A program made the translations under genes and the position numbers. Shown here in pieces: positions 33,291 to 64,000 of a stretch of DNA of 64,000 nucleotides (positions within the stretch are counted from its first letter, which is position 1; every line of letters begins with the position of its first letter). Origin of the DNA: Escherichia coli (GTDB lineage: Bacteria; Pseudomonadota; Gammaproteobacteria; Enterobacterales; Enterobacteriaceae); the NCBI RefSeq assembly GCF_051903065.1, contig NZ_CP178438.1; one strand, given 5' to 3'. The notes below the pieces were generated by a model, which saw nothing but the letters and a program-made list of their open reading frames with translations, did no database searches and was not told the DNA's origin.

Positions 33291-34952
33291 TCAAAATGTT
33301 TCCCAGTTTGGATCTTGTTCAGCAATTCGCAGTCGTGGCTGTGCCGGTGGTTGCTCACTAGCAGGACGGGATGGTGTTTGCGGTTTATTGGTGAGTGGGC
33401 TGGCTGCCAGACGAAACGCGGAAACCGCTTGCGTTAAACGACTTGCCTGTTCTTCCAGCGCAGCTGCGGCGGCAGCTGATTCCTGCACCAGCGATGCGTT
33501 CTGTTGCGTGACGCGATCCATTTCCGAAACCGCCAATGCGACTTGATCGATGCCACGGCTCTGTTCATCCGATGCCGATGCAATCTCGCCCATAATGTCA
33601 GTCACGCGAGTGACAGCATTGACGATATTGTTCATTGTTTCCCCGGCGCTTTCGACCAGCACCGAACCGGTATCAACGCGCGAGACGGAGTCTTCAATGA
33701 GAGCTTTGATCTCTTTTGCCGCCTGGGCGCTACGACTGGCAAGATTACGCACTTCGCCCGCCACCACGGCAAAACCACGGCCCTGTTCACCCGCTCGCGC
33801 GGCTTCAACCGCGGCATTCAGCGCGAGGATATTAGTCTGGAAGGCAATACCGTCGATAACGCTGATAATGTCGGCAATTTTCTTCGAACTATCGGCGATC
33901 TCATGCATCGTTTTCACTACGCCATCCACCACTTTGCCGCCGTGCTGGGCGGTGTCGGAGGCACTTTGCGCCAGTTGCGAGGCCTGGCGGGCGTTATCGG
34001 CATTTTGCTTCACTGTCGCGGTGAGCTGCTCCATGCTGGCGGCAGTTTCTTCCAGCGCGGATGCCTGCTGTTCAGTACGGGAGGAAAGATCGGTGTTGCC
34101 CGCCGCAATTTCACGGGTACCGGCATAGATGGCATCTGAACCTTCGCGGACATGAGTGACGGTGTCAGTCAAAGAGCGTTGCATATGTGAAACGCTCTGC
34201 GCCAGGTCGCCCATTTCACTGCGCCCGTCAATGGTCAGGGTATTCGCCAGGTTACCACCGGCGATTTCGCGAATGTGAGCAATAATTTTTGCCAGCGGTG
34301 TAAGCAACATACGGCGAATGCCGTACCACGCCACCAGCAGAATCAATACTACCACCAGCGCGATAACCGCCAGTTGCCACTGGGCAAATCGGTAATCATC
34401 TGCGTTGTCAGTGACGATATCGCGATACAGTTTTTCACTGCTGAGGGCGTACTGAGCAAACGCTTCGCCCATTGCATTTTGCATTCCCTGGGTTGGCTGA
34501 GCGAAATAAGCTCCAGTATTGCCATAATCAAGATAATCAATCAGCTCAGTTAACGCTGTGTAATAGTTTTTATATTTTTCATCAATATTACGACTGGTAG
34601 CGACCATTTCAGGTAACGGTGCCATGCTTTTGAATTTTTTATAATGAGTCGCGGCCTGGGCCAATGTTTTCCTGGCGCTATCGAGCAATTCAACTTTGGC
34701 ATTACTTTGTTGATTGGAGGAATCCATCATCATCCGCACCGCTGAACGACTCAGGTTAATGCGCGTTTGCAGCATTAAATCCCAGGTTGACGTCAGCTCG
34801 CCCTGCTGTTCCCGTAATTGATTGGAAACCACAAAGCTCTTCTGGCTATGGTGAAGGGAAGAAAAAAACAGACTGCCGGAAATAAGCTGTAACAGTGCGA
34901 ATACCCCCAGCACCATTACCAACAGCGTGACTACGCGGATACGGTTAATCAT
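33291..34952 (-). CDS. tar: methyl-accepting chemotaxis protein II (aspartate/maltose), NWETF C-terminus
   Basis: 553 aa from [11 protein letters not shown]; C-terminal NWETF pentapeptide. Confidence 0.95.
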
Positions 34953-52372: not shown

Positions 52373-52433
52373 TTAGATAGCCTCAAATTCCTTATTGGGT
52401 GCCAGAATTAACGCTGACACCCAATTTGACTTC

Positions 52434-53099
52434 TTAATGCAGGCAGCACTGCTTAAATTTCTTACCACTACCGCACGGGCAAGGATCGTTACGCCCCGGT
52501 TTCTCTTCTGCTATGATCGGTTGCTGAACAGCTTTTTCCTGCGGATGCGCCATCCAGTATGCATGTAAATCAAGCGCCGCCAGTCGAATGGCATCTACGC
52601 TCTCTTCAAACGCTTCTGGCGACATCTTCTCTACCCGCTCGAAGTTTTCCTGAGTACCGTGCAGCGCTATCGCCTCCAGCGCTGGTTTTAACGAATCGGG
52701 CAATGTTGACCAGTCAGAAAGTGCCACGCCCCGCATATAGCCAAAGCACCACTCCTCAACAATCGTCAGCTCGCTGCCATCAACTTCTCGCAAGCCGAAT
52801 AACGGCTCAAACTGCTCCGGGAATTCGTTCAGACGCTCTGCGGTATCGGCCATATGTTGAAAAGCCAGGTTCATAAAGCGCGTCATCTCTTTCTCTGACG
52901 CCCAGCGCGGCACATAGTCAGCCCCACCCCACACGGCAACCAGCCACTGTGCCGGTTCAATCTCTTGCGGAGAACTCAACACCGCCGTCAATAAACCGTC
53001 CAGCTCCGCCACATCAAGGATGGCGTGGTCAGTGTTGTATTTGGTCAGAATATCGTCCAGCCATTCCAACTCACTTTCGTTTAACGGTCCCGTTTTCAT
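52434..53099 (-). CDS. yecA: YecA (UPF0149, C-terminal SEC-C metal-binding motif)
   Basis: 221-aa ORF ending [15 protein letters not shown]. Confidence 0.93.
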
Positions 53100-53227
53100 A
53101 CGCTTTTCCTTGTGGATCTCAACTCGCCAGCACCTATCTTACATGCCGGTCCGTATCAGAGATACTTTTTGAGTGGCTTTGCCGGTGATTAAAAATCAAG
53201 GAGGGTGTAACGACAAGTTGCAGGCAC

Positions 53228-53250
53228 AAAAAAACCACCCGAAGGTGGTT
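53228..53250 (-). terminator. rho-independent terminator (tRNA-operon terminator homologue), repeat copy 1
   Basis: minus strand ccacc-ttcg-ggtgg hairpin + T7. Confidence 0.75.
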
Positions 53251-53294
53251 TCACGACACTGCTTATTGCTTTGATTTTATTCTTATCTTTCCCA

Positions 53295-53350
53295 TGGTAC
53301 CCGGAGCGGGACTTGAACCCGCACAGCGCGAACGCCGAGGGATTTTAAAT
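53295..53350 (-). other. 3' fragment (56 nt) of tRNA-Leu(UAA), att-site remnant
   Basis: revcomp ATTTAAAATCCCTCGGCGTTCGCGCTGTGCGGGTTCAAGTCCCGCTCCGGGTACCA = 3' part of leuZ from anticodon loop to CCA; 5' half absent. Confidence 0.85.
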
Positions 53351-53529
53351 TCTACGCAGGATCAATGAGTTACATAGCAGTGCATTGCGAAACTTTGCTG
53401 TAATTGTTTACTCATTTTACTGTAATTGGCAGTAAATAGATAGACTTGGATAACTTTGAGCACAGAATCTGCACAGGTAAGTCCCCTCTCACGGAGGCCT
53501 ACCTGTGCTATATCTATATGACTGCAAAG

Positions 53530-54171
53530 TTACGAGTTTGACTGGAAATCTTCAATTATCTTCTGATTGTAATCATCCAGATACTTTTGCAGTTCATCCC
53601 TGTCGATCAGACGTACCAAGGCTGATTCAGCTAACTCTTTCGCAGAGCGAGTGAGTAGGAATTAGTCACAACCATCGCCTCATCACAACCATAGAATGTT
53701 TTAGCAGAGATCACCTGCTGCACCGCCGAGTTACCTACAGAACCAGAATAATTTTTCGCCTGAATAACCATATCCTTACCAAATCGAGTGACGAAGAGAT
53801 CTGCCCCCTGATCTTGCGTTCTCTTGGTTTCTTTGACGTCATAGCCCATAGTCTGGAATACTTCCACAAGGAAATCTTCAAACTGGAAACCGTCCATTGC
53901 ATCAACTAAATACATGGTGACGAATTTGTTAGGGTTAAAATGTTCGAGCCGTGTAGCTAATCTATCAACCAGAATATCAAAATAAATATGTTCGCACACA
54001 GCTAAGTATTTTTTAACTTCATCAAATGAAACTAAAGGAACACCAGGCGTAGCCTCCACTTTTTCATTGAACTCTACTGATGAGAACTCTATTTTATTGC
54101 TCCATATATAGAATAGAAACAATGAAAGATCTGCCCTAAAAGTGGTACCCGCTTCCTCAATCCATGACTTC
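53530..54171 (-). pseudogene. Mrr-like (PD-(D/E)xK) restriction endonuclease pseudogene: 5' truncated by IS1, frameshift near 3' end
   Basis: ORF 53631..54185 has Mrr_cat-like ...GADLFVTRFGKDMVIQAKNYSGSVGNSAVQQV...; its apparent TTG start lies inside the IS1 end; -1 frame past the stop reads AKELAESALVRLIDRDELQKYLDDYNQKIIEDFQSNS. Confidence 0.7.
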
Positions 54172-54226
54172 GGTGATGCTGCCAACTTACTGATTTAGTG
54201 TATGATGGTGTTTTTGAGGTGCTCCA

Positions 54227-54502
54227 GTGGCTTCTGTTTCTATCAGCTGTCCCTCCTGTTCAGCTACTGACGGGGTGGTGCGTAACGGCAAAAGCACCGC
54301 CGGACATCAGCGCTATCTCTGCTCTCACTGCCGTAAAACATGGCAACTGCAGTTCACTTACACCGCTTCTCAACCCGGTACGCACCAGAAAATCATTGAT
54401 ATGGCCATGAATGGCGTTGGATGCCGGGCAACAGCCCGCATTATGGGCGTTGGCCTCAACACGATTTTACGTCACTTAAAAAACTCAGGCCGCAGTCGGT
54501 AA
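54227..54502 (+). CDS. insA: IS1 InsA
   Basis: 91-aa [25 protein letters not shown]... Confidence 0.95.
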
Positions 54503-54924
54503 CCTCGCGCATACAGCCGGGCAGTGACGTCATCGTCTGCGCGGAAATGGACGAACAGTGGGGCTATGTCGGGGCTAAATCGCGCCAGCGCTGGCTGTTT
54601 TACGCGTATGACAGGCTCCGGAAGACGGTTGTTGCGCACGTATTCGGTGAACGCACTATGGCGACGCTGGGGCGTCTTATGAGCCTGCTGTCACCCTTTG
54701 ACGTGGTGATATGGATGACGGATGGCTGGCCGCTGTATGAATCCCGCCTGAAGGGAAAGCTGCACGTAATCAGCAAGCGATATACGCAGCGAATTGAGCG
54801 GCATAACCTGAATCTGAGGCAGCACCTGGCACGGCTGGGACGGAAGTCGCTGTCGTTCTCAAAATCGGTGGAGCTGCATGACAAAGTCATCGGGCATTAT
54901 CTGAACATAAAACACTATCAATAA
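54421..54924 (+). CDS. insB: IS1 InsB (expressed as InsAB' by -1 frameshift at A6C, 54476..54484)
   Basis: 167-aa [19 protein letters not shown]...; slippery TTAAAAAAC present. Confidence 0.93.
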
Positions 54925-55001
54925 GTTGGAGTCATTACCGCCGCTTCACGCAATATCATTTCAGGCTGGCCCGGGAGCTTAATATTCCTCCCCAGGCAAT
55001 C

Positions 55002-55364
55002 GTGTATGCCAATCTACTGGCGTGGGATTACGACGGACTGACCCCTCTCAATCGCCCTCAAAATGAAGTGCAGGAAGTTATATTAGCCTCGCTGAAGCTG
55101 CTGGCGGTACAAATTAAACACCTTGAGCCTGATTTCATCATCTTTGCATCTGGAGCCCGGAGAACAGACTACATCATAAAACAGGTGCTTACTGAGCTGG
55201 GCGGCTATGAGACTTCTGCAGTCATTCCGGGGAAGCTATGGGAGTTCAAAACAGGTAATGCAATCTGTTTCAGAATTGCCCATCCAAGGGCTATGCGCGG
55301 ACACAAGAAGTACAGAGATGAGGTGATTGCACGAATTAAGCAACTTTGTACTCAGGGTGGCTAG
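55002..55364 (+). CDS. hypothetical protein, possibly 5'-truncated gene remnant
   Basis: 120-aa ORF from GTG; frame stays open back to the IS1 junction (54942), so likely a C-terminal fragment. Confidence 0.4.
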   Translation: MYANLLAWDYDGLTPLNRPQNEVQEVILASLKLLAVQIKHLEPDFIIFASGARRTDYIIKQVLTELGGYETSAVIPGKLWEFKTGNAICFRIAHPRAMRGHKKYRDEVIARIKQLCTQGG

Positions 55365-55541
55365 AGCATTACAGTTTGCTCAGCAGGCCCCCCCTTCCCG
55401 GAAGAGTACCGGAAAACAGGCAAAGCGGCCTGGTTCTCTATGCTGGAGGCGACACGTTCAATTCGGCATTGCCAGGCTGTAGATTGCAGCTCATTGCACC
55501 CCGTGAGCACAGGATATGCACAGGGCGTGAATTGCATGCAC

Positions 55542-55567
55542 AAAAAAACCACCCGGAGGTGGTTTCA
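55542..55567 (-). terminator. rho-independent terminator, repeat copy 2
   Basis: A7 + ccaccc-gga-ggtgg hairpin, homologous to 53228..53250. Confidence 0.7.
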
Positions 55568-55606
55568 CGACACTGCTTATTGCTTTGATTATTCTGATGT
55601 TTCCCA

Positions 55607-55662
55607 TGGTACCCGGAGTGGGACTTGAACCCACACAGCGCGAACGCCGAGGGATTTTAAAT
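55607..55662 (-). other. second 3' fragment of tRNA-Leu(UAA), diverged
   Basis: same 56-nt fragment with two substitutions (gagTggg / cccAcac) that stay base-paired in the T-stem. Confidence 0.85.
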
Positions 55663-55938
55663 TCTACGTAGGATCAATGAGTTACATAGCAGTGCATTGC
55701 GAAACTTTGCTGACGTTGAATGGTCGTCTTTGCAACCACTGGCAGAAAATGGATAGCCGTAGATTGCGTTGAGCACAGAAACAGCACAGGGTAATCGTCT
55801 ACCTGGTCCTGTAAAGGAGGTTGTTGCCACACAAGCTAAAGCGCTTGACCTGCCCCCAGTATTCGGTACAACTGTCAGTTAGTAATGGACTGACCCCACC
55901 CCGGTAGACGATCCTGCCCTATAGTTACCTTTAACTAA

Positions 55939-58900
55939 TTATGCCAATTCAGACTCAAACGCTGCATCATTCGCTTCAGCCTCTGCGCCATCAATTAATG
56001 CCAAGACTCGGTCAAGAAAGCGTTGCGCTTCGTATACATCTGTTGCTTGCCGCAGATAATGAGGTATTCGTTCAACAAACTCGGAACGTGATAAAGGCTG
56101 ATGTTCCAGCAAAGCCTCAAGCATTGCGGGCCGCAACAAACGACGATCAGCATCAACATTAGGAAGCTCAACCTCAATGACATGTGTGGCAAAATACTTA
56201 AGTTGCTCCTTAAGCCCCAAATTGGGCATAAGAGAATCAATTGAGTCAGACGCCACTTCAGCGCTTGACTCAATCGTTTCTACATATTCATAGGAAGGTA
56301 CAACAACGTCTGGAGCCAATGTTTTAAGCTCATGGAGTTTACGGATAATCGGAGATAGAACCTCATCAGGATTACTGAACCAATCAGTGGACCAAATGCG
56401 GCTAATTCTCCAACCCAAACGCTCCAGAACCTCTTGACGCAAACGGTCACGATCACGAGCAGATTTAGCTGAGTGATAAGCCGCACCATCACACTCTATG
56501 CCCATTAAGTAACGGCCAGGACAACCTGGATCTTTCACAGCTAGATCAATAAAGAATCCTGCAACCCCTACCTGAGGTTCACACTCAAACCCAGCGTGAT
56601 TGAGTGCTTCCATTACAGCAACCTCAAAGTCACTATCTGGAGCCCTGCCGGTATGCGTTGTGAGGGAATCTAGTTTGCCACTTTCGGCAAACTGTAAAAA
56701 ACCTTTCAACGAAATAACACCAAGTTTACTGATTTCACTCGTCAATACATCTTCAGAACGCATTGAACTAAACACATGCATCCGTTTTTTTGATCGAGTG
56801 AAAAGCACATTCAAGCGACGCCAGCCAACATCGGAATTGATAGGTCCAAAGCGTTGATAAACCTTTCCACCATGCTCAGAAGGTCCATAGGTAAAGGAAA
56901 TAAAGATTACATCACGCTCATCCCCTTGAACGTTCTCAAGGTTTTTCACAAAAAGTGGCTCTTCCATGGCATATAAGCCATCGATTGCATCGTTAAATTC
57001 AGGGCGATTTCGGCGCAATTCATCGATAGCGCGCTCAATTTGATCGCGTTGCTTGGAACTCATGGCCACTACCCCGAGTGACTCACCCGGCCGGTGTTGC
57101 GCATGATGAAGTACGGCCTCAGCAACTGCTTGGGCTTCTTCAATATTGTGTTGATTGGAGAACCGACCTTTTGACACATAGGTAAATTTAATCCCATACT
57201 CTGGAGACTCAGCATTTGGGGAAGGGAATATCACCAAATCACTGTTATAAAAATGGCGGTTAGAGTATGCAATCAACTTTTCATGTCGTGAACGATAGTG
57301 CCAACGCAAACGTCTCATAGGAAACAGTGGCAAAGCAGCATCCAAAATGCTGTCAGTATCACTTAAAGCCGCGGCATCATCGTCATCTTCTCCGTCGGCA
57401 CTTCGATCAAAGAAACTGGTTGGTGGTAGCTGTTTCGGGTCACCAACGACCACTAGTTGCTTGCCCCTCGCGATGACACCCAATGCATCCTCTGGCTTCA
57501 CCTGAGACGCTTCGTCCATCACCACCAGATCAAATTCCATTCGTCCAGGTTCTAGGTAATGAGCTGCTGACATTGGCCCCATCATGAAACAAGGTTTAAT
57601 TGCAACCAGCGCATTACATGCACGGTTAACCAATTGCCTAATTGGAATATGTCTGGTTTTTTTACCCAACTCATTTTTGATCAAAGCTAGTTCTGTATAT
57701 TCACTTTTCTTACCACCAGAATTCCCTTCTGGTATATTTCGGCAAGCAATTTTTGCTGCAATCCGCTGACGTTGTAATTCAATCAGTTTTTTATCGTAAT
57801 CTTTAAATGACTTCTGCAAAGCATTGCGCTGTGAGCCGGAAACTCTCATCAATTCAGGGTGGATGTGAATAACCTCCCGCGCCAGCTGGTCATGAATTGC
57901 TAATGCTAAACCCAATTCAACTTTTTCAATCGGGAGCGAGCCCGCAAGTACAGCACTCCAGATTCGCTGCAATCCATTTTCATGCATCTGCTCGTAACAA
58001 CGAATAAAGTTAACCCACCCGTTCAACCAACGGGGTTGCTGTATTGCTCTTTCGTTGCGCTCGATTAATGTATTAAGAGAACCATCAGTCGACTTGAGCC
58101 ACTGACTCCGCTCTAACTTTGTTTCTAGCGCATATAACTCAGCATTTTTAATCTGTTCATTCCATTTCGAAACTATTTCCCCACCATCACGACATAGTAA
58201 ATCGTAATCACTACCACTAGCCAAATGTCTGATCTGGGTAGCCAAGGATACGCAATTTATCTTATCAACCAGTTGCTCGGCAAAATTCAGCGTGTCGTTA
58301 ATAGTGTCTAACGTCAGTTGATTATTTTTATACGCACCGCAAGCCAATGGGGTTAATTGTAAAAACGCCCCTAACTGTAACGAGTCATTTTCAAGGGATA
58401 TCTGAAGATCGTTTATGTTTTGCAAAATCTCGGAGGAATGAGTCATCTGCTCTAATGATATATCTGGATTGATAAACCATCCCTGCAAGGCAATGAGAGT
58501 ATTCCGCACCTGTCGGTAAGATTGCATCAATACACCTTGCTCACCTAACCAAGATGCATGTTCTTCCAACAAGCTAGAAATACGCGGTAATAACTTAGCC
58601 TCGTGCTCGACCCGTTTAACCAAAGTCATTAATCTTGAGCTAATCTGCGATTTCTCGATTAAATGCACACCTTTGATAATCTCACCATCTAGGTTAAATA
58701 ATCCAGAGCCTATCGCAACTCGCTTTCCAAAACCTATCCCGTAACAAGCTCGGACCTTCTTGTACCAATCACGCAATAACATGAGTTGTTCACAGTCGGT
58801 GTCCAACCCTCGGAATGCATTACCAAGTTGATTACCAAAGTCACTTTGTTCAAACCGTTGTAACAGCTCCGAATACTTGAGCAAATCAGCTGAGCAGCGT

Positions 58901-61686
58901 TTTAACTCAGCAAACTTAGTGTCAGGCTTACGAGATTGCGCCATGAGCAGTGCCTTGGCACTACGCCAATCACTCTTAAACCATGCAAATAATCCCCCTT
59001 GCTGGATAACAGCAACGGCATGCGCGAGCATCTCTTGGGAAGGCAACTGGTCCAATTGATACAAAGTAGATAGACCATCTCTTAAAGGACGCAATGTTTC
59101 GATTTGACACATTAAGTCGCGCAATACTGCATCGATATCATCATCATCAAAAAGAGGATCTCGAACTCTAATAAGCTCAGTCGGTAAAGCACCCAGAATC
59201 GACAACAACTCAGAGCAGAATAGCAATCCAGCTTGCGAATCATCGATATACGAAGCAATACCATCTGGCAAAGCATTTTTGAAATCGTTTAATTGCGCAT
59301 AAATAGATGATAACTCATCATGAATTGATTGGATGGATTCAAGCCACCTGACCAAATCACGTAAAGTGAAATCCTCTGCTGCACCATATTTTTCCAGCTC
59401 TTCACGAGGAAAGTCACACGATTGTCCTTGTTCTAAAAGTCGTAGCTTTTGAGGCTCGATAACCTGGCTCAAGGCCACATAATGACCTTGTAGCAACTCG
59501 AACCTATCTAAATAGTGACGCACCCGTGCAATGGCATCGGGTGAATCTAGCTCACTAAGTGCTGGGAAATGCTCTGAACCACACAACACTGGAAGATTCG
59601 ACTGATCTTCTACCAATTGCTCAATATATTGAAGCGTATTAAGGCTTTCGCCTTCTAACGCCCACTTATCTACATATTCTTGATAGCTATGTTGAAAGTC
59701 GATAATTGATGTCTGCCAAGTTTGTAGCAAATCGACTATACGAGCGCTGTCAAACAATTGAATTTGTGTGTTATTCACACCGCTCCAAGGGTGCTCATAT
59801 ATTTCTGCATTAGCCCCCACCTGCTCACGAACCTCTTTGTAGATGCGGCTAAACTCTACTATTTGGTCACGCAGCCGTAATTGGGTCACTTTATCCAACT
59901 GCTTCCCGGAAAGGTTTTCGATATGAAGTGCTGTTGCATCAATATCTAATTTGTGACGATAACGGGTTGCACCACTCAAAATCTGATGGATCGTTTTGCC
60001 TGTTTGCGCCCATTGGTTATTGATCAATGCGGCATATTCATTGAGCTGCTGCTTAAGATCTTCATAACGCAAAATCTGAGCATCAATCTCTTCCATAGTA
60101 GGCATGGTCGCCTGACTCACCAAGCGAGCATTAATATCATCCAGCACCTTGCGCTTATGAGTTTTATGACTGTGCAACTCTAAGCAAAATTGACCTAGCC
60201 CCGCACGATCCAAGCGACGTTTGACGACCTCCAGTGCAGCCATCTTCTCTGCCACAAACAGGACTTTCTTACCGTTGAGCAGAGCTGCTGCAATCAAGTT
60301 GGTGATCGTTTGTGATTTGCCACTACCAGGAGGGCCCTCAATGACTAAGTTTTGACCACGGATAGCATCGATCAACGCACTGTGCTGCGAGCTATCCGCA
60401 TCATCGATTAGTGGAACCTTGTCATGAATATCAGGGTAACTATCGATGCAGTACTCATGCTGACCGAAGCCACCAGGTAAGCCGGAATTCTCTTGACCAC
60501 AGCTCTGACTGGTGAAAAAGCGACGAATTACTTCATGAGACAATATATTGCGCTTGTCACAAGGCCAGCGGGCAGGATCGAGGTCAAGATACATCATCAT
60601 CTTGCCAAAATTGAGCAAGCTAAGTGCACCATAACGTTTCACAGACCATTTAGGTTTGTGCTGCTCTACAACCTTCTTCACCGAAGCAAAATAAGACTCT
60701 GGAGTTTCCTCTTCATTGAACAAAGGAAGAGCGAGGCCAAAGTCAGCCTGAAGTTTTTCCTTCAAAGAGAGATTGGGCAAAATATCTTCACCCGTGTAAT
60801 AAAGTTGAAACTTGTAAAGACCATCCTTCGGATCTAATTTTCCTCGTTCACATCTCACCGGAATTGTAAATAACGGTGCATAACGTGCCTTTTCAGAGGA
60901 ATCGCTTTCATACCACTCAAGGAACCCTAACGCCAAATACAAGATGTTGGCGCCACTCTCCTCCAAAGCAGTTTGAGCCTTACCATAGATGGCGCGCAAA
61001 CAAGCTTCCAGTTCATTTGGATAAAGCAGAGCCTGTATCCGATTATCGTCATGAGAGGGATTGGAAGAAGATATACTAATCTCATTCCCAGCCTTTGCCT
61101 GTCGTTCAAAATCCTCAAGCCCTTCATAGCCTGCTAAGCAGCACGCCTCCTTCAACGCTGACAAAGCTATACCTTGATTAACGTATTCAGAACGAATCCC
61201 TGTTAATTTTCCATTCTGGCCTTGGGCATATTGCAAGATAAACTGATGGGCTTTTTCCAGCAACTCTCTATCTGAATCAGAAACAACCGTTTTATGGCTA
61301 TCTGGTAAATCAAAATCTGTACGGATTCCTAAGACGTGCGCCCAATCCTTAGCGCTAGGATGAGCTCTTAACTGTATATCTTTACCATCTGGCCCAACTT
61401 TGAGATAGCCATGCTCTAACAGCTGCGCTCTAGTTGGATCGGGCACAGGAGCAAATTCCATCGGGATTTCCGAGCAAAGGGTTTCATAAAGCTGTTCTGG
61501 TAATTCATCAACAATACGTAGTGAAGACCCTTTTTGAGTGATAGGGAAATTCAAAAGTCGATTTCGAGACGTAAGGTCCAATAACTTCTTACGCATAGCC
61601 TCGAGGGAAGTCAGAATAAAATCTGAGCCTCCTTGATTGAGTTCCTCTGCTGTAGAGGTATCTACAGTCGACATAATGTTCTCCAT
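55939..61686 (-). CDS. giant helicase-nuclease (1915 aa): DUF4011-like N-terminus, Upf1-like SF1 helicase with ~940-aa insertion, C-terminal Vsr/DUF559-like nuclease domain
   Basis: LLDLTSRNRLLNF and LALGFLEWYE near N-terminus; Walker A GPPGSGKS (res 451-458, nt 60313..60336); DEAS (res 1391-1394, nt 57505..57516); VVVGDPKQLPP; GDERDVIFIS; GWRRLNVLFTRSKKRMHVF; C-terminal FFIDLA...IECDGAAYHSAKSARDRDRLRQEVLERLGWRISRIW (nt about 56377..56628). Confidence 0.85.
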   Translation of the reverse strand: MENIMSTVDTSTAEELNQGGSDFILTSLEAMRKKLLDLTSRNRLLNFPITQKGSSLRIVDELPEQLYETLCSEIPMEFAPVPDPTRAQLLEHGYLKVGPDGKDIQLRAHPSAKDWAHVLGIRTDFDLPDSHKTVVSDSDRELLEKAHQFILQYAQGQNGKLTGIRSEYVNQGIALSALKEACCLAGYEGLEDFERQAKAGNEISISSSNPSHDDNRIQALLYPNELEACLRAIYGKAQTALEESGANILYLALGFLEWYESDSSEKARYAPLFTIPVRCERGKLDPKDGLYKFQLYYTGEDILPNLSLKEKLQADFGLALPLFNEEETPESYFASVKKVVEQHKPKWSVKRYGALSLLNFGKMMMYLDLDPARWPCDKRNILSHEVIRRFFTSQSCGQENSGLPGGFGQHEYCIDSYPDIHDKVPLIDDADSSQHSALIDAIRGQNLVIEGPPGSGKSQTITNLIAAALLNGKKVLFVAEKMAALEVVKRRLDRAGLGQFCLELHSHKTHKRKVLDDINARLVSQATMPTMEEIDAQILRYEDLKQQLNEYAALINNQWAQTGKTIHQILSGATRYRHKLDIDATALHIENLSGKQLDKVTQLRLRDQIVEFSRIYKEVREQVGANAEIYEHPWSGVNNTQIQLFDSARIVDLLQTWQTSIIDFQHSYQEYVDKWALEGESLNTLQYIEQLVEDQSNLPVLCGSEHFPALSELDSPDAIARVRHYLDRFELLQGHYVALSQVIEPQKLRLLEQGQSCDFPREELEKYGAAEDFTLRDLVRWLESIQSIHDELSSIYAQLNDFKNALPDGIASYIDDSQAGLLFCSELLSILGALPTELIRVRDPLFDDDDIDAVLRDLMCQIETLRPLRDGLSTLYQLDQLPSQEMLAHAVAVIQQGGLFAWFKSDWRSAKALLMAQSRKPDTKFAELKRCSADLLKYSELLQRFEQSDFGNQLGNAFRGLDTDCEQLMLLRDWYKKVRACYGIGFGKRVAIGSGLFNLDGEIIKGVHLIEKSQISSRLMTLVKRVEHEAKLLPRISSLLEEHASWLGEQGVLMQSYRQVRNTLIALQGWFINPDISLEQMTHSSEILQNINDLQISLENDSLQLGAFLQLTPLACGAYKNNQLTLDTINDTLNFAEQLVDKINCVSLATQIRHLASGSDYDLLCRDGGEIVSKWNEQIKNAELYALETKLERSQWLKSTDGSLNTLIERNERAIQQPRWLNGWVNFIRCYEQMHENGLQRIWSAVLAGSLPIEKVELGLALAIHDQLAREVIHIHPELMRVSGSQRNALQKSFKDYDKKLIELQRQRIAAKIACRNIPEGNSGGKKSEYTELALIKNELGKKTRHIPIRQLVNRACNALVAIKPCFMMGPMSAAHYLEPGRMEFDLVVMDEASQVKPEDALGVIARGKQLVVVGDPKQLPPTSFFDRSADGEDDDDAAALSDTDSILDAALPLFPMRRLRWHYRSRHEKLIAYSNRHFYNSDLVIFPSPNAESPEYGIKFTYVSKGRFSNQHNIEEAQAVAEAVLHHAQHRPGESLGVVAMSSKQRDQIERAIDELRRNRPEFNDAIDGLYAMEEPLFVKNLENVQGDERDVIFISFTYGPSEHGGKVYQRFGPINSDVGWRRLNVLFTRSKKRMHVFSSMRSEDVLTSEISKLGVISLKGFLQFAESGKLDSLTTHTGRAPDSDFEVAVMEALNHAGFECEPQVGVAGFFIDLAVKDPGCPGRYLMGIECDGAAYHSAKSARDRDRLRQEVLERLGWRISRIWSTDWFSNPDEVLSPIIRKLHELKTLAPDVVVPSYEYVETIESSAEVASDSIDSLMPNLGLKEQLKYFATHVIEVELPNVDADRRLLRPAMLEALLEHQPLSRSEFVERIPHYLRQATDVYEAQRFLDRVLALIDGAEAEANDAAFESELA

Positions 61687-61860
61687 TTCTTAGGGTCCAC
61701 AAGTAAAACGTTTTATGCTGATGCATCACAAAAAGACCGCAGTAAACTGCTGCAAAGAAGAGGAGATTTTTAGTCTCCCCTTCTTTATCAATCAGATCAT
61801 ACAATCAACTTAACGCCCATTAGTTGATAGCAGCCAAATTTCATAAACAGATTCAATCCG

Positions 61861-63903
61861 TTATTGCTGAATTTGATTGGATAGTAAGACCTGCAACATA
61901 TCTTGTTGATGCACAGCTATCTCATCTTCCAGCCAACGACCTTTATCTTTCATCAGCCGAATCATAGCAAGCAATTTAAGACTATCAGTCTGGTTATTGG
62001 CAAGGCTTGCTTCAAAGTGCTCCTGCTTCTGTTGCGGCTGGAAGTTACTCAAGCGCGAGTTCTTGCTGTGGCTGATAAGGCAAAGGTTGCCAAACGAATG
62101 GAGTGCACTCTGCTCAACCGGTTTATAGCCATCCATCGGATGCTGGGGTGAGAAGTGCTCCACCGAGCTGCGGAAAGTGAACTCAAAGGAGCCAGCAACT
62201 TTGTCGCTATTCCGATCTCGTACCCACAGCAGATAGTCGAGGAAGTTGAAGACAAAGTTGTTCTCGATATGACCGAAGCGAAGTTTGGATGTAATCACCT
62301 TGTGCCAACTCTCATCCACATTGATGGCGGGCAACAGGGCGTTATCAAGGTAGAGCATCTGGTAATAGGAAGCCCCTTCACCAGGCGCCAAAAAGCGCTG
62401 GAAGACAAAGCGGCGAGCCTGACTCTCCAGATAGGACAGATAAGCCCCGGCATCCACCGGTTGATCAGGGTGACAATTGTCGAACAGATATCTCAGTGCA
62501 CCATTCAGCCAATGTTTGTAAACCAGGGTCGGGGTCGACACATGAAACGCCGACAGCAACATCAGGACCCGCCGGTTAACACCAGAGAAACCATTCTCAT
62601 TTTCATCCTTGTCAAAGGTATTGATGTAACTGACGCTCTTTTCCGAATACCAGTGCAGCCGCTTCAGACTCCAACTATCCTTGCCATCGGCAAACTCGCG
62701 CTTGATGATGAACTGATCAAACAGATACTTGCTCTTTAACAGGCCATAGATAAAACGCTGAACTGCCGCTACTGGATCCGGTTGCCTTATCACTCGCAGC
62801 TCAAACTGATCGACCAGTTGTTTATCATCAAGCGGCACCCCCTCCGTATCACCCGGGTCGCGGCTCACGAGTCGCAGCACATGGAGCAAGAAGTTGGAGA
62901 AGTTGATGACGCTGTTAAAGCGCTCGGAGCCTGCGCTCTCCTCCTCCACCGTCTGCTCACCATCAAGCTTGTCATCCTGCAAAATGGCCAACAAGGTGCG
63001 CCCTTGGCTACCGGCAGCTGCACGGCTTTTATCGGCAGCGTCGGCCGTGTTTGGGGATCCTAGCAGATCAAGCAGATGGGCAAAGTCACGGGGCACAAAC
63101 TGACCCCAGTCGCTCTCACCAAACAGACGGTGGCGCTCTTGCGGGGTAAAGCCGTACTGGATATAGCGCTCCATATTGGCGCAGGCATCCCATACCCGGG
63201 TCAGGATATGAATACTTTGGCGACGATGCTCTTCCTCGGGTATCTGGTTCAGCGTCTCCATCAGCCGCGCCTTGATCACTTCATGCTTTTCCAACTGCTC
63301 GCCGCGATTGTTCATCGCCTCGAAGAAGTGATTGAGATCGGTATCCTTGGGTACTTCGATACGAGAGATCTGCACATGCTTGAAGAGGTAGTCGCAAAAG
63401 GTCGTCAGTTTAGCCCCTACCAAACCAAGATCCGCCATTGCCTTGCCAATCAGCTCAAAACCGTTCACCAAACCTTCATTGAAGGTACTCCCCCGCAAAT
63501 CGTAGGGGGCAACACCCTGCCATAAGCGCTCGAAGGTATGGCTCGATATCGGGCGACTCTCAAAAGCGAGGTTGATGGTCTGATACCAGCTCATATCCAC
63601 CGAATCTATCGCGTGATGTTTGAGCCAATTGGCCAGCAGAGAGAGGGTAGTAAAGCGCTGCTGGCCATCGATTACCTCGAAACTGCCATCGTCCCGGGCA
63701 AACACCACCAGGGTGCCGATATAGTAGGTTTGCGGCCCCTTACCACTGACCAATTTTTGCTGATAATCCAGCACATCCTGCAGCAGCTGGGTGATCTCTC
63801 CCTCACCCCAGGCATAGTTGCGCTGGTACATGGGCACCAGATAGCGGGCGCGATCTTCAAGCAGTGCACGAATGGAAAAGGGGCGAACGCCTGCATCATT
63901 CAT
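61861..63903 (-). CDS. DUF262 (ParB-like NTPase/nuclease) + DUF1524 (His-Me finger) protein, GmrSD-like putative type IV restriction enzyme
   Basis: N-terminal [16 protein letters not shown] and [12 protein letters not shown] (res 79-83); C-terminal [12 protein letters not shown]...[18 protein letters not shown]. Confidence 0.85.
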
Positions 63904-64000
63904 AATATTTCATCTCCCGAAACAGCCCGACCAGCTCATCTTCGGCACCATTGCGATTGTTCTTGTTCTCTCGACTGCTCATGCTAGGCAAAGGGAAGCC
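63896..64000 (-). CDS. 3' end of an upstream ORF running off the window (partial)
   Basis: minus-strand frame open from 64000 to TGA at 63898..63896 (...[28 protein letters not shown]); ATGAATGA overlap with the DUF262 start. Confidence 0.4.

Follow-up and report, generated by a model that had tools for sequence, protein, structure and literature searches.

An IS1 copy without a target-site duplication very probably marks the deletion that emptied an older pipolin-type element at the leuZ hotspot of Escherichia coli

We analysed a stretch of 64,000 nucleotides of Escherichia coli DNA (hereafter the window) that runs through tyrP and yecA. In E. coli, yecA is followed by the tRNA genes leuZ-cysT-glyW and then by pgsA, and in the lineage of the window, to which the near-identical complete genome of strain 23CRST027 belongs, yecA is separated from leuZ by some 37 kb of accessory DNA. 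The window is the E. coli yecA-leuZ hotspot, a known integration site of pipolins and defence islands. The tRNA-Leu gene between pgsA and yecA has been described as the pipolin integration site of this species and as a defence hotspot, at which conserved att repeats overlap the Leu-tRNA and some genomes carry three atts with two elements in tandem (PMC11551731, PMC7385651, PMC9710591). The features that concern us here, among which the two integrated elements are called A (presumably the older) and B, are as follows.

53295..53350, minus strand: att1, a 56-nt copy of the leuZ 3' end with the C..G variant of the T-stem; yecA-proximal end of the presumably older element A
53351..53480, no strand assigned: conserved element end just inside att1, about 87% identical to the stretch inside att2 (55663-55794)
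53530..54171, minus strand: remnant of a Mrr-type gene, namely the 3' 642 nt of a 393-codon gene whose 5' part is missing (Pfam Mrr_cat, PGAP and alignments)
54172..54939, plus strand: IS1A, with IRL at 54172-54194, insA at 54227-54502, the A6C motif at 54478-54484, insB' reaching to 54924 and IRR at 54917-54939; without a target-site duplication
54940..55364, plus strand: remnant of a gene for a uracil-DNA glycosylase-like (UDG-like) protein, namely the 3' 425 nt of a 741-nt gene whose first 316 nt are missing
55607..55662, minus strand: att2, a 56-nt fragment of the leuZ 3' end with the T..A variant; boundary between the remnant of element A and element B
55663..64000, minus strand: start of element B, with the Hhe gene (55939-61686) and a DUF262 gene (61861-63903)

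The IS1 at the centre of this region is intact. An initial annotation, made from the letters alone, had described a complete 768-bp copy with insA, insB and an A6C frameshift site, and the ends, the open reading frames and the PGAP annotation all bear this out. The termini are canonical (left GGTGATGCTGCCAACTTACTGAT, right ATCAATAAGTTGGAGTCATTACC), and IRL and IRR align as the imperfect terminal inverted repeats of about 23 bp that define IS1. The insA and insB' reading frames occupy 54227-54502 and 54421-54924, and in IS1 these two frames are joined via a -1 frameshift at the A6C motif; PGAP lists the copy in 23CRST027 as 'IS1-like element IS1A family transposase, programmed frameshift'. No second IS1 left end was found in the 64-kb window, where the IRL pattern gave a single match with up to three mismatches allowed. 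The copy is 100% identical to those at this locus in strains 2022CK-00450 and 22AR0118. We considered its descent from one of these copies, but IS1A copies are too uniform for this identity to decide the matter, and the idea was set aside.

A target-site duplication of 8-9 bp marks a simple insertion event rather than the element, and its absence at this IS1 is the finding. The sequence outside the IS1 reads ...tcaatccatgacttc on the left and gccgcttcacgcaat... on the right, and the 9-bp flanks, catgacttc on the left and gccgcttca on the right, are unequal, as had been noted initially. No k-mer of 8 bases or more is shared between the two 40-bp flanks; the sole word common to both is the 7-mer CCGCTTC (positions -23 and +1), and on the left it does not adjoin the IS1. 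Because the flanks share no word of at least 8 bases, moving the IS1 ends gives no duplication either, and none of 8-14 bp was found at any placement. The script detects duplications, since the same search recovered target-site duplications of 9 bp and 8 bp around two other IS1 copies in related loci that served as positive controls.

Reading frames on both sides stay open into the IS1 ends, which agrees with the earlier description, and PGAP labels both flanking genes in 23CRST027 as 'incomplete; missing N-terminus'. The gene on the left encodes a C-terminal Mrr_cat domain (Pfam) and is a restriction-endonuclease gene of the WP_001310914 family; PADLOC places it near Mrr-like and type IV nucleases, as well as near PDC-S02, a candidate family. 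In the window a 1-bp deletion near 53654 shifts its frame, and the open reading frame ends at 53631 instead of 53530. The 120-aa reading frame on the right corresponds to the last 140 codons of a 246-codon gene. Both genes had been recognised initially, the Mrr-like one on the minus strand and the 120-aa one on the plus strand, and the frameshift and the parent gene refine that description. The right gene matches phrog_29550 (function unknown) and carries the UniRef name 'uracil-DNA glycosylase-like'; searches of Pfam, NCBIfam, PADLOC and PDB sequences gave no match. The UniRef name agrees with the UDG gene that is frequent in E. coli pipolins (PMC7385651), and in intact elements the UDG-like gene lies between the integrase and leuZ.

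Two complete genomes from human faeces in Ecuador, those of E. coli 23CRST027 and 23CRST031, contain this 3.6-kb region at 99.9% identity, and these were the only genomes in which both junctions of the window IS1 were found in one piece. Relative to 23CRST027 the window carries two 1-bp indels, at 53654 (in the Mrr frame) and at 55388 (in a run of C), which may be sequencing errors or real differences of a third strain. We also compared the region beside the junction with strains 675SK2 and 2022CK-00450. In yecA, the roughly 440 bp at 52513-52951 contain 10 SNPs relative to both, and a further SNP lies immediately below the stop codon at 52431; the adjoining island remnant (53218-54171, about 950 bp) shows a single SNP and a single indel. 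The island remnant is far less divergent than yecA, and the island sequence is therefore common to several chromosomal backgrounds.

Two 56-nt copies of the leuZ 3' end in the window, together with the intact leuZ of the near-identical genome, make up a set of direct att repeats. ARAGORN reported no complete tRNA in the window, because the intact leuZ lies about 24 kb past its end. The DNA directly inside each att repeat is about 87% identical over roughly 130 bp (86.8% over 265 bp when 53218-53480 is aligned with 55532-55794), and because of this identity elements A and B appear to be of one family. Element B comprises Hhe, two DUF262 genes, type I restriction-modification (R-M) genes, piPolB and an integrase; in the near-identical genome the type I R-M genes, piPolB, the integrase and a UDG-like gene lie past the end of the window and are followed by the intact leuZ. 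The Hhe gene (1915 aa) is annotated there as the anti-phage protein Hhe (DUF4011), with the DUF262 gene next to it, and the two are variable defence cargo at the att-distal end of what would be the younger element.

Element A, in contrast to element B, consists of a 2.3-kb remnant between att1 and att2 that holds two pseudogenes and the IS1. piPolB is absent between att1 and att2 and from the whole window, and the gene annotated 'DNA polymerase type-B family protein' is found in element B beyond the window (in the near-identical genome) and in strain SX12. The tyrosine recombinase that intact relatives carry by the tRNA-proximal end (Pfam Phage_integrase) is missing from element A, and because the integrase is lost, element A is unable to move on its own.

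The att repeats also bear on the order of integration. att1 and att2 differ in a compensatory T-stem pair (C..G versus T..A), and both att1 and the present leuZ of 23CRST027 are of the C..G variant. In 2022CK-00450 and SX12 an element of the A type abuts leuZ directly, and the leuZ of these strains is of the T..A variant, as is att2; moreover, a single homopolymer indel is all that distinguishes att2 and the UDG-like remnant beside it from the stretch between the UDG-like gene and leuZ, both included, in these two strains. From these att alleles we infer that element A entered leuZ first, which would have displaced the old 3' end of the tRNA gene to att1, and that element B, with its Hhe, DUF262, type I R-M, piPolB and integrase genes, would then have entered leuZ and left att2 between A and B.

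The initial annotation had proposed a comparison with related islands in order to reconstruct the deleted segment, and strain SX12 allowed this reconstruction. In SX12 the Mrr-type and UDG-like genes are both uninterrupted in one element, with no att copy between them, and the breakpoints of the window fall at 2368 and 27850 of the SX12 locus (L014), in the same order and orientation as the flanks of the window IS1. The description of the flanking genes as 'two unrelated truncated genes' consequently needs to be divided: they are truncated and belong to unrelated protein families, yet they are the two ends of one tRNA-Leu integrative element of the pipolin type. Relative to SX12 the window lacks 25,481 bp, in which type I R-M genes, piPolB and the integrase gene lie. 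The SX12 element begins with Mrr, a PD-(D/E)XK gene, a hypothetical gene, an M48 peptidase gene, hsdR, a cold-shock-domain gene, a YecA-like gene, hsdS and hsdM; these are followed by two hypothetical genes, a tyrosine recombinase gene, an HTH gene, a further hypothetical gene and a gene annotated 'DNA polymerase' at the position of piPolB; and it ends with a hypothetical gene, IS1, another hypothetical gene, DUF2787, two hypothetical genes, the integrase gene, the UDG-like gene and leuZ.

This DNA was not relocated. The 5' part of the Mrr gene and the neighbouring PD-(D/E)XK and GmrSD/DUF262 genes had no match elsewhere in the whole 23CRST027 genome, where the search returned a single place that covered only positions 1-643 of the query, i.e. 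the retained 643 nt. Since the lost DNA is absent from this genome, the event was a deletion and not an inversion or translocation, which supports the initial proposal of an IS1-mediated adjacent deletion or a recombination between two IS1 copies. How large the deletion was depends on its progenitor: judged from the sequences compared, it may have reached about 25 kb if the progenitor resembled SX12, and would have been about 1.5 kb if the progenitor had already been reduced like 2022CK-00450. The candidate defence genes lost from element A are the intact Mrr-type nuclease, the PD-(D/E)XK gene (PADLOC PDC-S26) and the GmrSD/DUF262 gene (HEC-06-like), to which type I R-M genes and piPolB have to be added if element A was like SX12.

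Related strains carry, at this locus, one IS1 in constant orientation and never with a target-site duplication, and they differ in their junctions:

2022CK-00450: Mrr gene with 765 nt remaining on the left of IS1; integrase gene with 1011 nt remaining on the right
22AR0118: left junction equal to that of 2022CK-00450; UDG-like gene, near its start, on the right
NCTC10973 and NDM3: hsdR on the left; TIR gene on the right
720632: Mrr gene with about 816 nt remaining on the left; right junction equal to that of NCTC10973
675SK2 and SEV1: truncated GmrSD gene on the left; 474 bp before the leuZ region on the right
S1: Mrr gene with about 324 nt remaining on the left; ogr-like gene on the right

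The strain pairs that have exactly one junction in common form a nested series, as is predicted by stepwise, one-ended (adjacent) deletion from a resident IS. The right junction of the window was found only alongside the left one, in 23CRST027 and 23CRST031. An intermediate with IS1 and a target-site duplication at either window junction was found in none of the 5,426 complete E. coli genomes, in which each junction was searched separately; other full-coverage matches in these searches were two-piece joins with IS1 at other positions. A second IS1-anchored junction was observed in three strains, in all of which the M48 peptidase / hsdR module borders the left IS1 end through an identical flank, atgggctcatttgtc (L005 14094-14469, which is in 23CRST027 and outside the window; L008 28019-28394; L007 24678-25445). 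The far side of this IS1 varies: two of the strains have an element cut off at nt 376, the third has the whole element, and the adjoining cargo also differs (Hhe-DUF262 versus fimbrial genes).

Strain ECNB21-M121 has the chromosomal backbone of the window lineage (its yecA, yecH and uvrC alleles are identical, as are the 4 kb that follow leuZ) and contains the exact left junction of the window, catgacttc followed by nt 1-37 of IS1, with different DNA to the right. At its locus (L015 12151-13244) the IS1 is interrupted at nt 37 by an IS903B without a target-site duplication, on whose other side an HTH-DUF726 region follows, and att2, Hhe, the type I R-M genes and piPolB are absent. The matching IS903B copy in 23CRST027 has a 9-bp target-site duplication (gcagcaaac). 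Because the copy in ECNB21-M121 lacks this duplication and that in 23CRST027 has it, ECNB21-M121 seems to descend from a window-type tandem, plausibly via IS903B-anchored deletions. When the stretch from DUF2787 to the UDG-like gene was compared between ECNB21-M121 (L015 15390-20000) and 23CRST027 (L005 34589-39200), SNPs were clustered in patches, and the chromosome beyond leuZ was identical. This clustering suggests recombination between related elements in the right part, which would then have been involved in the history of ECNB21-M121.

We consider it very probable that the IS1 in the window is the scar of an IS1-associated deletion that emptied the interior of an older, pipolin-type element A at leuZ. 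The most likely route is adjacent deletion, whether stepwise or in a single step. An IS1 within element A would have removed the DNA next to it through intramolecular replicative transposition, from one end at a time and once or repeatedly; each such step would keep the IS1 intact, make a new junction and destroy the target duplication, until att1, the 3' 642 nt of the Mrr-type gene, IS1, the 3' 425 nt of the UDG-like gene and att2 were left. IS-adjacent deletions that enlarge step by step and lose the target-site duplication have been documented experimentally (PMC11708052). Both junctions of the window differ from those of every sampled relative outside its lineage, and because of this at least two steps, or an unsampled intermediate, would be needed.

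RecA-dependent recombination between two direct IS1 copies, each inserted with its own duplication, one in the Mrr-type gene and one in the UDG-like gene, is a serious rival that we nevertheless hold to be rather unlikely. It would delete the interval between the copies and yield the same end product, one IS1 with mismatched flanks, and missing duplications have been documented through both adjacent deletion and recombination between IS copies, the latter being listed as a common cause (PMC11708052). The lineage is also rich in IS1, with about 37-39 matches per genome (the near-identical genome included), and further IS1 copies lie in the neighbouring element, e.g. one with a target-site duplication at 33813-34579 of the 23CRST027 locus (L005), so that recombination between direct copies is quite possible. 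However, neither of the presumed parental insertions with its duplication was present in any of the 5,426 genomes, and across lineages the locus invariably carries a single IS1 of constant orientation, of which one junction is retained while the other shifts; to account for this, recombination would need a fresh and well-oriented second insertion for each variant. Both routes lead to the same end product; the sharing of junctions among related strains and the left junction of ECNB21-M121 fit adjacent deletion, and the nested junctions would tilt the balance, though only tilt it, toward its stepwise form.

A single combined event, in which a newly arriving IS1 and the loss of the DNA between two target cuts coincided and the duplication was never made, appears very improbable. 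This 'IS-Del' class has been discussed, and proposed for some IS5 and IS481 events (PMC11708052); it would place the IS at the centre of a deletion without a target-site duplication, as observed here, and agrees with the failure to find an intermediate among the genomes searched. In the long-term evolution experiment, by contrast, 14 of 14 cases of an IS with a deletion were an insertion followed by an adjacent deletion (PMC11708052). A nested series with single shared junctions fits stepwise events rather than a combined one, and so does ECNB21-M121, which holds the left junction with other DNA to its right. Inversely oriented IS1 copies can invert chromosome segments and swap flanks, and this general ability is what speaks for a join formed by inversion, translocation or import of foreign DNA without any deletion in place, the missing gene halves surviving elsewhere; this explanation is scarcely credible and was rejected, as both flanks have the order and orientation of one element (SX12) and the Mrr 5' part and its neighbours, having no second match in 23CRST027, are missing from that genome. 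Insertion of IS1 into an older gene-gene junction was likewise rejected, since the Mrr-to-UDG-like junction without IS1 was found in 0 of 5,426 complete E. coli genomes. The initial annotation had named this junction, and a duplication at shifted IS1 ends, as the outcomes that would speak against it, and both are absent.

Adjacent deletion, the preferred route, places the window among known events. Classical IS1-mediated adjacent deletions were reportedly described by Reif and Saedler in the gal region of E. coli. The class of IS-mediated adjacent deletions has since been reviewed and measured (PMC11708052). The case described here shares with the IS1-mediated deletions an intact IS at the deletion endpoint, the loss of the target-site duplication and, by the probable route, one kept and one new junction and a nested, step-by-step series; there is no difference in kind, and what sets the window apart is that both junctions differ from those of the sampled relatives outside its lineage. 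The IS903B deletions of ECNB21-M121, in the same lineage and island, likewise leave an IS without a duplication at the deletion endpoint, and differ in the IS family and in the removal of most of the IS1, of which the first 37 nt are left.

With the E. coli leuZ pipolins the locus has in common the chromosomal site, att-like direct repeats over the tRNA 3' end with three atts in tandem cases, type I R-M genes, a UDG-like gene, tyrosine recombinases, IS elements and defence genes (PMC7385651, PMC9710591, PMC11551731). Unlike pipolins, the remnant of element A has neither piPolB nor an integrase, and because piPolB is absent it is not itself a pipolin by the published definition. Cis-mobilisable elements (CIMEs) are derivatives of integrative elements that have no recombination module and stand in tandem with an intact element, as in ICESt1/3 of Streptococcus thermophilus. 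The remnant resembles them in being flanked by att repeats, in having no integrase and in lying in tandem with a related element that bears one; it differs in that the loss was caused by IS1, in that it holds only pseudogenes and IS1, and in that mobilisation in trans is putative here. By analogy with CIMEs, the 2.3-kb att1-att2 remnant may be excised or carried by the integrase of the neighbouring pipolin, and IS-anchored erosion may be regular at leuZ, a proposal that we regard as improbable. If it were true, IS-anchored erosion (by IS1 here and by IS903B in ECNB21-M121) would fuse and immobilise tandem leuZ elements and reshuffle their defence cargo.

The type of event is already known and is ordinary, well-understood genome decay; its importance beyond annotation is small, and two pseudogenes are explained. 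What is added is the context, namely the presumably older of two tandem leuZ elements, a loss that can be reconstructed, and nested IS-anchored deletions across E. coli lineages. The region from yecA to Hhe would be what is left of an older mobile element, distinct from the neighbouring island, and the order of integration can be dated, with element A probably followed by element B. The locus is thereby a documented natural case of an IS eroding a defence island, in which candidate defence genes (an Mrr-type gene, a PD-(D/E)XK gene, a GmrSD/DUF262 gene and possibly type I R-M genes) were lost, and in which the remnant is fixed in place because the integrase was lost together with the defence genes. 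The six junction classes at this one hotspot make up a compact natural data set on the trimming of mobile elements by IS1.
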